Source: Lytechinus pictus (lineage: Eukaryota). Taken from it: a stretch of DNA of 64,000 nucleotides. The DNA is taken from the NCBI RefSeq assembly GCF_037042905.1, contig NC_087250.1, forward strand, positions 16,680,001-16,744,000. The letters are read 5' to 3'. Position 1 is the first letter of the stretch; each line of letters begins with the position of its first letter. Below, piece by piece: positions 7,001-13,000 of this stretch. The position numbers and the translations under genes are program-made. A model generated the notes under the pieces. It saw only the letters and a list, made by a program, of their open reading frames with translations, did no database searches and was not told where the DNA came from.

Positions 7001-10000
7001 CCATGAATTTCCTAATAGTCCAGGATAGAAGAGGCATAACCTTGTTTTTTTATATATACAATATTTTTTGATGGTTTCTTGTCAATTCGAGGGTGCTGAT
7101 TACGAATGCATTTCATAGCCAATGTGCGGACAATTTTATGATTTTCATGGGTAATTTGCATATTTTGGTGGCCATATTGGATTTTGCCAATTTGCGGAAA
7201 ATGCTCAAGGTTACACGTGTGGCATCATCCAGATTCGTAATCAGCACCCTCGAATTGACAAGAAACCATCAAAAAATATTGTATATATAAAAAAACAAGG
7301 TTTGGTCAAGTTTCTATGGAGCCTATCCTGGACTATAATACTCATAGAAACAAACTTCTCACCTAAATACAAAACAATCTTAAATTTTGGCAGAAATAAG
7401 CTGCTGAAAACTGCTTTTCTAATAAAAGAGAGCCGAGGAGTAAATTAGAAAGTCAAAAGGGGCCTAAGCTTTCGATCCTAGCAGAATCTTCGTCGGAGGC
7501 AAAATGACAAACATTTAAAGTGGAACAACCATAATATAGACCACAGACATGCAACACCAACACTAGAAACAAGGAGACAAAAAGGGCATTAGAGAGTTGT
7601 GATGACCTTTTGCCCTTATTGTCTCCTTGTTTCTAGTGTTGCTGTTGCATGTCTGTGGTCTATATTATGGTTGTTCCACTTTATATGTTTGTCATTTTTG
7701 CCTCCGACAAAGATTCTGCTAGGATTGAAAGCTTAGGCCCCTTTTGACTCTCTAATCTTAAATTTTATCAAAATTATCATCATCAGACAAACCTGATTTT
7801 CCAAACTATTAATTTGTACACTGTATTAAAGGGAGAAGATGAATTATCCTGGAAGCTTGACTGTGATAAAATCTAATGGATTGTATGTTGCACAGCAGAT
7901 AAAGTACAGCCTTTGTTTTTCATCTACTTGGAAATTGTGATAAATCATGCAAAAATTATTAGGAATCATTTAATGTGAATTAATGCATATGGTTAGACCC
8001 TTCTGTGGGCATTGAAGCACAACTTGCATTGGTCATTGAAGCGCAATTGTCTGCTTGAGCCCCTTGGTGTTGTTTGTTCCTTTTTTAACAAGTAATCTTG
8101 TCCTCCTTTGTCTAACCAGGCATCTTGCAGGAGAAATAGGCCAGGTCTGGAATGAGACCGATGCGGAGAAGGACCAGGCCCAGCGGGAGAAGCTCCTGAC
8201 CCTCGCCAAGGAGATCGTACCCTACCACATGCAGCACAACGCCGAGGCCGAGGCTTGTGATCTTCTCATGGAGATTGAACAGTTGGATCTACTTCAGGAT
8301 TATGTAGATACCAATGTGTTCCCCAGAGTCTGTCTTTATCTCGTCAGGTATTGCCAATTTGAATGCTCATTTAAGAATAGTGATTTGTTTTTGCCTATTC
8401 CCTATTGGAAACAGATCTACTAAATGATCATGTAGACACTAATGTGTTCCCTAGGGTCTGTCTTTATCTCGTCAGGTATTGCCAATTTGAATGCTCATTT
8501 AAGAATAGTGATTTGTTTTTGCCTATTCCCTACTGGAAACAGATCTACTACATGATTATGTAGATACCAATGTGTTCCCAAGAGTCTGTATTTATCTCGT
8601 CAGGTATTGCCAATTTGAATGCTCATTTAAGAATAGTGATTTGTTTTTGGCTATTCAGTACTGGAAACAGATCTACTAAGGGACTCTGTAGATACTTATG
8701 TGTTCCCCAGGGTCTGTCTCTATCTCGTCGGGTATTGCCAATTTGAATGCTCATTTAAGAATAGTGATTTGTTTTTGGCTATTCCGTACTGGAAACAGAT
8801 CTACTAAGGGACTCTGTAGATACTAATGTGTTCCCCAGGGTCTGTCTCTATCTCGTCAGGTATTGCCAATTTGAATGCTCATTTAAGAATAGTGATTTGT
8901 TTTTGCCTTTTTCCTACTGGAAACAGATCTACTACATGATTATGTAGACACTAATGTGTTCCCCAGGTTCTGTCTTTATCTCATAAGGTATTGCCAATTT
9001 GAATGCTCATTTAAGAATAGTGATTTGTTTTTGCCTATTCCCTATTGGAAACAGATCTACTAAATGATCATGTAGACGCTAATGTGTTCCCTAGGGTCTG
9101 TCTTTATCTCGTCAGGTATTGCCAATTTGAATGTTCATTTTAGAACAGTGATTTATTTTTGCCTAGTCCCTACTGGAAACAGATCTACTACATGATGAAA
9201 ATAGATACAAATGTGTTCCCCAGGGTCTGTCTTTATCTCGTCAGGTATTGCCAATTTGAATGCTCCTTTTAAGAATAGCGATTTGTTTTTGCCTATTCCC
9301 TACTGGAAACAGATCTACTACATGATTATGTAGACACTAATGTGTTCCCCAGGTTCTGTCTTTATCTCGTCAGGTATTGCCAATTTGAATGCTCATTTAA
9401 GAATAGTGATTTGTTTTTGCCTATTCCCTACTGGAAACAGATCTACTACATGATTATATAGATACCAATGTGTTCCCCAGGGTCTGTCTCTATCTCATCA
9501 GGTATTGCCAATTTGAATGTTCATTTTAGAACAGTGATTTATTTTTGCATATGCTTTGACAGAAGCAGTTAATTCAACTCCTGGATCTGTATATATCTTT
9601 TCAGTATTGCCAATTTGAATGCTCATTTTAAGGGATGCTCCGGGCTGAGAATGATATGATTTAAACAGATAAAGAAAAATCAGACAAACAAAACACTGAA
9701 AATTTGACAAAATCGGACTAGAAATAACAAAGTTATTGCATTTTAAAGATTTGTATTATTCTGGTGAAACAGTTTTAGGCATGTCTTCATTAATAATCAA
9801 TGAGAATCTTGATGATGTCATATCTCCACTTGTTCTTTTGTTTTTTAATATGAAATTAGGTTTATTCATTTTATTTTACCAAGAACTGAAAATTGGAACT
9901 ACAACTGATTTAGTGCATTACATATTTCTTGCTGCAACTTATTTTATTATAAAGAAGACAAATTATTCACACATGAATGAAAAAATGAAACAATTATGAT

Positions 10001-13000
10001 TTAATGTAATAACATAAGAAAAAGGAAAGTGAGGATGTTACATCAACAGACCACCTAATAATTATTCATGATGATGTGCATATAACTATTTTCACAAAAT
10101 ATTGCTTAACTTATTAAAAATTCAATAACTTTGTTATATGTTAACCGATTTTGATGAAATTTTCTGCATTTTGCTCTGTGAATTTTACTCTACTTAATAT
10201 TTTCAGCCCAGCATACCTTTTTAAGAAGAATGATATATTTTTGCCTATTCTCTGTTGGAAAAAGCTAGATCTACTATGGGACTCTGTAGACACTAATGTT
10301 ATCACGAGGGTCTGTTTTTATCTCATCAGGTATTGCCAATTTTAATGTTTGTTTAAAAATAGTGATTTCTTTTGGGTATTAATAGAAATTATGGCCCCGT
10401 CTTACAAAGAGTCACGATTGATTGATTCAATCAACCACAACTATGGAAAGCCACCAACGTCAACATCTATGTTGCATGTTTGATCAAAATATTTTCCAAC
10501 TGTGATGTTAATTCATATATTCACCACATTCTTGAAAATTCACCACATTCTTGAAAATTCAGTGCGCTTCTCTTTGTTTACAAAGGGCATTGTTCAAATT
10601 TCTCGTAGAAAAGATGATGGATTTCCATAGATTTAATGTTGATCATATCAATTGTAACTCTTTATAAGACGGGACCCATATCTTCAAGAAAAAAAATGGC
10701 TATGTATTCGGGAATCAGTTCCAATGTGTGTAGCATTAATGCAAATTCTAACTATTCTGAGTTTGTGAAGTTAGAGATGAACACTGACAACTTTGATATG
10801 AAATGCTAAAATACTCGTAACTGGTGTTATACTGTCCCACATATGCTTTGAATTTTGCTTGATTATTTGTAGGATAATATGAAAATCAAATTCTTTCAAA
10901 TTCAGTTTCGTTCACATATCTCCTTGCAATCCATGTATTTGTAGCTGTGTTAACTACGTGCCAGAACCGGAAGACTCCATCCTGCTGAGAACGGCCCTGG
11001 ATATCTTCAGAAAGTTCAATAGTTACCCTGAAGCCATGAGGCTGGCAATCCGGCTGAATGATGTTGAACTTATTGAGAAGATTTTCACATCGTGTAAAGA
11101 CAAGTAAGTCATTATAAATTGTGACCAGCCACCCAAAAAGCAATGGCCCGAATTCACCAATCAACGGCCGAGATCTGAGGGGGGGGGGGGGGGTTAATTA
11201 ACCCCCCTCCCCATTATATGTTGGTCTGAAATAGCCCAGTTGAAGGTATTGTTTAACTTTGTGAGCAGCCGATTTAAAGAATTCTCAAACCAAGATGAAA
11301 TATGTGTACAAGTGCATGTATTAGAACCAATAAACCCTGAAAACAACCATTATTGAGAATGAAAAGCTAAAACTACAAGGCAAACCCCGATTTTGTAAAT
11401 AGGCGTCTTATAGACGCCTAAATAGTACACATAAGTGTATGGGATGAAATTAAGATGGTGTTTTCGGTCACTTTATATTTCAATTTTTGAAGCACTAAAT
11501 AATTATTTTTGAATGCAATTTTTTCTGGGCTTCATTTTTGTAACATATCACAGACACAGGTGACAAGTGTGACCTTCTAGCTCAGATTTTTTAAAAGTCA
11601 AACCAATGTTAACCAATCACTTTAAGATAGGGTTAAATGTCTAGTTGGGATCCCTATAAAAGACATCACTGCATTGGTGGTAATCATGCTAAGGGGACGC
11701 GTGGTACTGCGTATTAATCCTATTTTAGCTGGGCTATTTCGCACCAGTATATACTGGGGGGGGGGGTCAATTTGACCCCCCCTCAGATCTCGGCCGCTGA
11801 TTGCGCAATCGCCGCAAAAATTTGCAAGCGCGTAGAGCCGGATTTAAACTACAAGAGTGTATAGTAAAATTTTCATATGAAATTTGCCATAAATTTGGTT
11901 TTTTGTGTATGTATTTGCCTTTAACTCAATTTATATAGCTAGTAGAATGCTAATTTTTGGTGGGAGTATCAATTATTACATTTCTGACAAATTTCTACAA
12001 AAAAATAGCAAAAATGTAATTAATTTCTTATGTATTTTATTGTTTTTTTAATTTTTTTGTATTTCTTTGTTTTTTAAACCTTTGTTTTTTATTGTTTTTC
12101 CCGATAAACTTTGTCGAGGACCCTTTTGCGATCACAAATAGCATAAAATAAATCCATTTAAACCAACAAAACTAAAAATAATCATACATTTATGATTTTT
12201 GGTTGAAAAACAGAATTTGCATTGACTTTTTACACGGAATCACGTTTTTGAGCAATTTCTGGTCTGACATGCACTTACAAAACGTTGTTTAATTTTTGAA
12301 CCGCGTACCCGGGCGTCGCAAATTTGGTCTCAAAAGATGCGCAAGATTTGAAAGTAAAAAGTCAGTGAGTGGCGCAGTCAAAAAAATTCGTGCGACGGCG
12401 TAGTGACAAAATTTGTTGAGGGGGGTCAAATTGACCCCCCCCCCAGTTTAATAAGGGTTAATCAAATTGCATGTGCATGTCAGCACTAAGCATGACTCTA
12501 TCAAAGCCCGTCTAACATAATGCGATTCGTTGCGATCCGAATTTCAAATTAATTGTGAGAACATTTGATATGGATATTCCAACTGATAAAATATTATAGA
12601 TCAGAGTTCAGAATAGTGGTAGGACTACTGAAATCAAAATTCAGTCCTGTTAGAGCCTCCCTGAATGAATAAAAACAAATTCAATTCCAAATCATAATGA
12701 CGTCATCATCGGCTGCGACTTCATGTCATATTAGTTTTCCTAACAATATACCAAACTTTAAATAAAATAATTTTACTCCTTGGAACTTTCATATTTTATG
12801 CAAAATTTGATTTCTTGAAAAATTGTGTCGCACCAGATCGCATAGTGTAAGACAGGCTTTAGTCACATTTAAATCTTTTTGACCCACCCCTCCTGCAAAT
12901 AGCCAAAATAATAATTGGTCTTAAAAAAGTAAAAATTAGAAAATTACCTTATTTGAAAAAATTCTTCTTCTTTATAATGTGAAAATTTGAAGTTGTAAAT

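Follow-up and report, generated by a model that had tools for sequence, protein, structure and literature searches.

The window analysed here, 64,000 nucleotides of the sea urchin Lytechinus pictus (contig NC_087250.1, positions 16,680,001 to 16,744,000), contains the proteasome gene PSMD2/RPN1, in which the end of exon 5, its splice donor and the start of intron 5 are repeated in a tandem array of 128-bp units. Such an array is far beyond chance. It is probably a tolerated minisatellite at an exon-intron boundary, of the kind described as a 'mirage' or known from human F7, and most likely neutral; in the RNA reads found, exon 5 is joined to exon 6 from the first of the donors. The host gene (E value 4e-25 against PDB chains) comprises 20 exons between 971 and 28127, which together give an 896-amino-acid frame with no internal stop. 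The exon 5 product is 93% identical to that of S. purpuratus and 91% to that of Diadema setosum, and the nearest named proteins are from sea urchins. The exon 5/6 junction is covered by 103 of 120 listed homologues (the other 17 do not span it), and in 101 of the 103 the length there is unchanged. Intron 5 measures 2.6 kb and the smallest real intron of the gene 306 nt. Splice sites were scored with matrices trained on the 19 donors and 19 acceptors of PSMD2 itself, a rough yardstick; in motifs below, a slash marks the splice boundary. The array and its surroundings consist of the following features.

8120 to 8347, plus strand: exon 5, 228 nt, phase 2 to phase 2, with RNA depth along the full exon and loose read ends leading to exons 4 and 6.
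8345 to 8353, plus strand: true donor CAG/GTATTG; in the leave-one-out matrix only one of the gene's 19 donors is weaker.
8286 to 9552, plus strand: tandem array (Tandem Repeats Finder: period 128, 9.9 copies, 91% matches, score 2054).
8476, 8604, 8732, 8860, 8988, 9116, 9245, 9374 and 9502, plus strand: copied donors of the tandem part.
9576 to 9631, plus strand: broken extra unit, with donor remnant TCA/GTATTG at 9604 and its intron part interrupted by the next element.
9632 to 10220, no strand assigned: element of 589 bp resembling a miniature inverted-repeat transposable element (MITE), flanked by TTAA, with short imperfect terminal inverted repeats and inner arms of 49 nt.
10221 to 10375, plus strand: distal unit, with donor at 10330, the most diverged (16-24 differences from other units).
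10393 to 10676, no strand assigned: second inverted-repeat element with 30-nt arms, adjoining the distal end of the array.
10945 to 11103, plus strand: exon 6; in three RNA runs the loose ends behind 8347 consist of its first letters.

Each unit joins 61 nt of the end of exon 5 to 67 nt of the start of the intron, and the last 61 nt of exon 5 itself (8287-8347) constitute copy 0 of the repeat. This anatomy can be read directly from the window. The donor word GTATTGCC occurs 12 times in the 64 kb, always within 8348-10330: the true donor, nine tandem copies, the broken copy at 9604 and the distal copy at 10330. An initial annotation of this DNA had counted ten donors at 128-129 bp spacing and one more at 10330, beyond a TTAA-inserted MITE. 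The ten are found at 8348-9502 (spacings of 128 six times, then 129, 129 and 128), and the TTAA-flanked element does precede the 10330 donor; the count itself was incomplete, a further broken copy standing at 9604. Of the donors that it described as near-identical, 8 of 10 copies retain the exact donor 9-mer, while those at 8732 (CGG/GT) and 8988 (AAG/GT) are altered. The in-frame TAA that it placed at 8421-8423 is there, and every read-through to the ten later donors ends at codon 244. In the broken unit (9576-9605), loss of one G leaves TTTTCAG/TATTG, with an acceptor score of 8.7. Parts of the 589-bp element recur at 41.8-42.3 kb and at 47.8 kb.

Inner units differ from one another at 3-18 positions. 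The closest pairs, some of them non-adjacent, are u5/u8 (3 differences), u1/u8 (4), u3/u4 (6) and u1/u6 (6). Together with the more diverged distal unit, this pattern of divergence would fit an old duplication followed by later internal expansion.

Donor choice was followed in RNA from runs X21, X23 and X24, of which shares of 6%, 6% and 25% were examined. Reads were aligned to 7770-8414, a region with exon 5 and a single unit length of intron; junctions from later donors were assessed through marker letters and through joints that go back within this region, as inclusion of a unit or read-through would give. Counts of loose ends and variants are those among the entries listed, at a threshold of three reads; two more loose-end and five more variant entries exist. 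All 39 listed junction reads lead from 8347 to exon 6 (5 from X21, 6 from X23 and 28 from X24, with agreement of 1, 0.95 and 1). Depth at 8364-8414 is zero in the three runs, and the 5, 6 and 32 reads in the bin 8342-8363 all end at 8347. No joint back into the repeat and no joint for inclusion of a 61-nt pseudo-exon is listed for reads aligned to this region in the three runs, which were made without a block of nonsense-mediated decay (NMD). For products other than the junction of 8347 with exon 6, the 95% upper bound is about 7%, within which some low-level use masked by NMD is possible.

The reads carry the letters of the exon and not those of the units. 8327G is present in 9 of 10 units, and in all three repeat contigs that cover the site in a DNA run, X1, and in none of 45 RNA reads. 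The tallies of changes in RNA likewise leave no room for 8296G or 8297T, one or the other of which is carried by each of the nine units tabulated. The reads therefore derive from the exon rather than from the units. That the gene must pick the first donor, as had been proposed, is thus borne out by 39 of 39 listed junction reads with exon letters; the proposed RNA check of junctions comes out the same way among the listed reads, in a sample that is shallow. Organism B, the best match to the window, has an identical start of exon 6 and an unchanged 8300 in 10 of 10 reads. Organism A, closely related, has 8300C in 44 of 44 reads and differs at about 11% of letters in the upstream intron.

Run X1 is DNA of organism A, and the repeat is directly visible in it. 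One contig goes back 128 positions, from 8413 to 8286, and another crosses from a unit to the element just beyond the array, where 26 of 28 letters match 10420-10447, an element family with other copies. Because contigs from organism A show the repeat, the array predates the split between A and B. Depth in X1 is 1222 in the donor bin against 75 in unique exon, a ratio that is not taken as copy number. These contigs bear also on whether the copies were made by faulty assembly, which is scarcely credible. An older S. purpuratus protein model, P0001, illustrates that assemblies or gene models can duplicate exons of PSMD2, and offers nothing for this array itself. The units differ at 3-24 positions, one of them is split by a MITE, and the independent DNA run contains the 128-bp head-to-tail joint; artefact as the source of the array is refuted as to its existence. 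P0001 itself (975 amino acids) contains exons 4 and 5 twice with identical protein and P0002 lacks the duplicate; the doubling is probably an assembly or model artefact. We also looked for exonised repeat copies in relatives. The models P0034 and P0070 differ, but their inserts are unrelated to the repeat and resemble intron read-through in gene calls.

Under the tolerated-minisatellite reading, a stretch of about 128 bp spanning the exon 5 donor would have been duplicated in tandem and amplified by unequal exchange or slippage, and the array would later have been invaded by the MITE and partly homogenised. The spliceosome would define exon 5 by its first donor and join it to exon 6, the copies being removed with the intron. 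Choice of the first donor may proceed by oriented scanning or exon definition, by analogy with work on human F7. Splicing from any later donor, or inclusion of a 61-nt pseudo-exon, would lead to a premature stop, as waste rather than regulation, and rare errors of this sort would presumably be degraded by NMD.

Two described systems are closely similar. In amphioxus, mirages are reported in Adh3 and in the globin genes BflGb6 and BflGb9 as copies of exon-intron boundaries, 5' and 3', in units of 150-160 bp with 81-100% identity, many of which keep AG/GT; as described there, regular splicing is undisturbed, boundary units are excluded from homogenisation and length is unstable (Ebner et al. 2010, PMC3087553). 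The PSMD2 array resembles them as a boundary minisatellite with normal splicing and a distal unit outside homogenisation, in a gene where both types of boundary are affected; it differs in belonging to a sea urchin and a proteasome gene, in its 128-bp unit and in the MITE within it. In human F7, the 37-bp variable number tandem repeat (VNTR) of intron 7 has its first unit across the boundary, identical donors follow, and the most upstream is used; in the minigenes reported, 1 to 12 repeats left donor use unchanged (Borensztajn et al. 2006, PMC1557585). Cases listed with F7 in the same paper are IFI6 (6-16), CBS, LMNB2 (100 bp, 10-15 copies) and PDGF (81 bp, 16-18 copies), with silent donors described for F7 and LMNB2; of these, LMNB2 is close to the PSMD2 array in unit size and number. 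Only 4 exon bases lie in the F7 unit, against 61 in the PSMD2 unit, so that every PSMD2 unit includes an acceptor-like exon end, and the F7 mechanism was tested by minigenes, whereas the PSMD2 array is known here from sequence and RNA reads.

Every defining mirage or F7 feature that was open to testing was found in the PSMD2 array. Its first unit lies on the real boundary; its period and copy number are 128 bp and 9.9, plus two outliers, for a described unit range of 10-160 bp; a splice signal is present in many units (8 of 10 identical, 2 changed and 1 further broken); the most upstream donor is used in the reads listed; and turnover is internal, with boundary units left out, as the close inner pairs and the 16-24 differences of the distal unit indicate. 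The array is a further boundary minisatellite of an already described type. It is also one of several in the gene, boundary duplications occurring in 3 of the 19 PSMD2 introns, at exons 5, 11 and 18.

17273 to 17581, plus strand: copies of the exon 11 acceptor and exon start, 94-bp period, E value 1e-34, upstream of the true acceptor.
25283 to 25399, plus strand: one copy of the exon 18 end and donor, 81% identical, E value 2e-25, with GC in place of GT at 25348.

The array is more simply accounted for by a general mutational tendency than by a device specific to PSMD2. An essential housekeeping gene thus carries three boundary duplications and yet splices normally in the reads found. Among the exon 11 copies, the decoy acceptor before 17435 scores 12.1, on a par with strong real acceptors, and its use is predicted to add 94 nt and a premature stop. 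Use of the copied exon 18 donor, CAG/GCAAGT, is predicted to add 170 nt, with a stop at codon 849.

Across units 1-9 the donor 9-mer has changed twice, where windows of 9 nt average 2.6 changes, so that donors are neither purged nor kept. Variable sites number 20 of 61 in the exon-derived part and 14 of 67 in the intron part (P = 0.16). Of 26 distinct changes in the exon-derived part, 15 are non-synonymous, and one unit has a frameshift. The synonymous share there, 11 of 26 against 0.24 expected (P = 0.037), may best be put down to the true exon changing at silent sites only.

The pseudo-exons named in the initial annotation were said to begin at a cryptic acceptor, a pyrimidine-rich tract ending in ACAG.

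8370 to 8414, plus strand: the first of nine ACAG pseudo-acceptors (a TAG at 10268 comes in addition), weak, with the purine run GGAAA ahead of the AG.

The acceptor was overstated: no tract directly precedes ACAG, and the sites score like random AGs. Matrix scores run from -5.1 to -0.3 and are equalled or exceeded by 19-49% of 1076 random intronic AGs (6 sites compared), and of the nine positions from -12 to -4, pyrimidines fill 3 before ACAG and 1 before the AG at 10269, where each of the 19 real acceptors has 5-9; two real acceptors do score as low as the ACAG sites in leave-one-out. The 61-nt size holds in most units, unit 7 giving 62 nt, and inclusion of any single pseudo-exon is disruptive as claimed, with a premature stop in 10 of 10. 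Among combinations of pseudo-exons, 1022 of 1023 have a premature stop. Units 3 and 7 alone keep the frame open (+41 amino acids), which we treated as chance, since two weak acceptors and one weakened donor are required. In-frame microexons of 21 nt (+7 amino acids, from the AG 21 nt before each donor) were likewise set aside; their acceptors score -7.4 to 4.2, and none is seen in the loose ends.

These results bear on the proposal that the array is an NMD-coupled rheostat or dosage modifier, in which the rate of use of later donors or pseudo-exons would be regulated or would depend on copy number, with degradation of the products tuning the supply of RPN1. We consider this very unlikely. In its favour, the weak true donor is matched by 8 of 10 copies, every single inclusion and every read-through gives a premature stop, the repeat is also present in organism A, and the products would be hidden by NMD. 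A poison exon should have a usable 3' splice site, and the ACAG scores are within the range of random AGs by the 19-site matrix; it should be conserved beyond neutral, and the donor 9-mer is no less variable than other windows, 56% of which are as low. Moreover, the 67 nt from donor to ACAG contrast with the 306 nt of the smallest real intron, aberrant junctions are 0 of 39, the donors show no sign of selection, like duplications occur at exons 11 and 18, and the F7 minigenes were reported as unaffected by repeat number (PMC1557585). The rheostat is thus unsupported.

Several points weigh against a tolerated, neutral array. Only 43 RNA reads reach the donor, a small sample that was obtained without an NMD block; events in fewer than three reads are unlisted, and the loose-end entry lacks 4 of the 32 X24 reads at 8347. 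The repeat has lasted, being present in organism A, whose nearby intron is about 11% different from the window. Units 1-9 all agree over 19 nt starting at the donor G (permutation P = 0.054, post hoc and borderline). The splice-site matrices rest on 19 sites only. Finally, human IFI6 (6-16) and CBS are described as using two pseudo-donors besides the true one (PMC1557585).

A different route through the array starts from the exon-derived end of each unit. The donor at 8348 could be spliced to the AG at a unit end, so that whole 128-nt units would be removed, an identical donor rebuilt and the mRNA left unchanged, part of the intron leaving stepwise by recursive splicing in a ladder that erases itself. 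A ladder for stepwise splicing was among the ideas of the initial annotation, but the acceptor concerned is not the ACAG discussed above; it is the CAG that abuts each copied donor.

8439 to 8481, plus strand: candidate ratchet site at a unit end, with a CTAAT branch-like motif at -34, a pyrimidine tract, AG and the copied GTATTG.

The elements of a ratchet site, namely a branch motif, a tract and a YAG abutting GT, are all present as sequence. AG is kept at 9 of 10 unit ends (CAG in 8, AAG in 1), with scores of 6.1-10.3 that compare with a leave-one-out median of 6.7 for real acceptors and that are reached by only 0.5-2.8% of the 1076 random intronic AGs. CTRAY at -34 is found at 6 of 10 unit ends (as CTAAT) and in 2 of 19 real acceptors within -45 to -15; exon 5 itself is without the CTAAT motif. 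Of the gene's 10 exons that end in AG, exon 5 has the end most like an acceptor (8.1; others -5.3 to 3.4), a likeness that stems from conserved codons (RVCLYL in echinoderm homologues), so that selection need not be assumed. The AG 21 nt upstream could capture the branch point.

Precedents exist for the parts of this ladder. In an ATP2A2 minigene built on the Rogers model, an intron arose from a duplicated AG/GT segment, reported as spliced out at 6-16% in human cells (Hellsten et al. 2011, PMC3265369). The likeness lies in a duplicated AG/GT with pyrimidine tract and branch motif, and in a redundant segment that can be removed with the product unchanged; in ATP2A2 an AG/GT in coding sequence gives a new intron, whereas in PSMD2 an existing donor would give a putative extra step in an old intron. 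Human lariat reads have revealed intronic and distal exonic recursive sites, found singly, some of them at exon ends or within short introns (Hoppe et al. 2023, PMC10156609). With these sites, and the distal exonic ones in particular, the unit ends have in common YAG/GT, an upstream tract and exon ends able to act as 3' sites; they differ as a tandem series produced by repeat expansion. The same paper describes recursive splicing of short introns at low, stochastic rates, with conventional lariats dominating, and intron 5 has only 2.6 kb. The support is from sequence: mature mRNA cannot reveal the ladder, and no intronic or lariat read was among those aligned. We found no paper joining recursive splicing with tandem repeats, minisatellites or VNTRs in a search that most subscription journals lay outside, and a search of earlier findings for recursive splicing with tandem donors in sea urchins returned nothing.

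On balance we regard the ladder as unlikely. It is compatible with neutrality and would be one reason for the array to be harmless. If it were true, repeat expansion would have made working recursive splice sites, each unit being a well-formed 128-nt intron, and a rule would follow as to which exon ends can give rise to donor minisatellites harmlessly in this repeat-rich sea urchin genome; if the ratchet sites were really used, the origin of recursive splice sites would be tied to repeat expansion. The marker letters of the units make the array a natural test bed, where donor choice and stepwise removal could be read from nascent or lariat RNA. Separately, exon 5 is symmetric (228 nt), so that skipping it leaves the frame intact at 820 amino acids, and with an end that is itself acceptor-like (8.1) such skipping by a distal exonic recursive route may be possible in principle.

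The array may also trade sequence with exon 5, unequal exchange or gene conversion rewriting the 3' end of the exon from the units, with survival of silent changes only, a prospect we hold to be rather improbable. The five X24 variant sites listed in 8287-8328 (8294A, 8300C, 8309C, 8312T and 8324A) are all synonymous, with letters found in units of the window, and they fall among the 9 of 19 third positions that are variable in the array (hypergeometric P = 0.011, or 0.033 with the 4 segregating sites). This is a post hoc test, made with unphased reads of X24 animals that are not those of the window, and an old polymorphism keeping ancestral letters explains the overlap equally well. Simple unequal exchange would favour the most 3' letters, yet 8327G, which is silent and carried by 9 of 10 units, appears in 0 of 45 reads.

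Further features were noted elsewhere in PSMD2. The donor of the last intron, AAT/GTATCC (26988-26996), scores -4.3 in leave-one-out, far under the others, and the last acceptor (28060) is the lowest at -4.4. The consensus of U12-type donors is GTATCCTT, and the last intron is possibly of this minor class. Intron 4 contains palindromic MITE-like inserts at 7000-7340 (found by eye) and 7501-7698 (88-nt arms, 97%). In introns 14 and 15, two copies of a 1-kb element (20818-21775 and 22671-23664) are 94% identical and have internal repeats of 163/192 bp. A degenerate direct repeat of about 104-bp period (70% over 191 nt) lies at 28171-28483, in the 3' untranslated region.

Beyond the gene, tandem arrays at 33273-33700 (107 bp, 4 copies) and 39187-40373 (233 bp, 5.1 copies) resemble pieces of interspersed elements at 38652-38728 and 40764-40886. 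Short pieces at 49100-50210, 53116-53159 and 54645-54991 recur about 0.85, 3.6 and 5 kb away (82-100% over 19-45 nt). They surround the probable first exon and promoter of a neighbouring gene on the minus strand, and are possibly remains of a promoter duplication.

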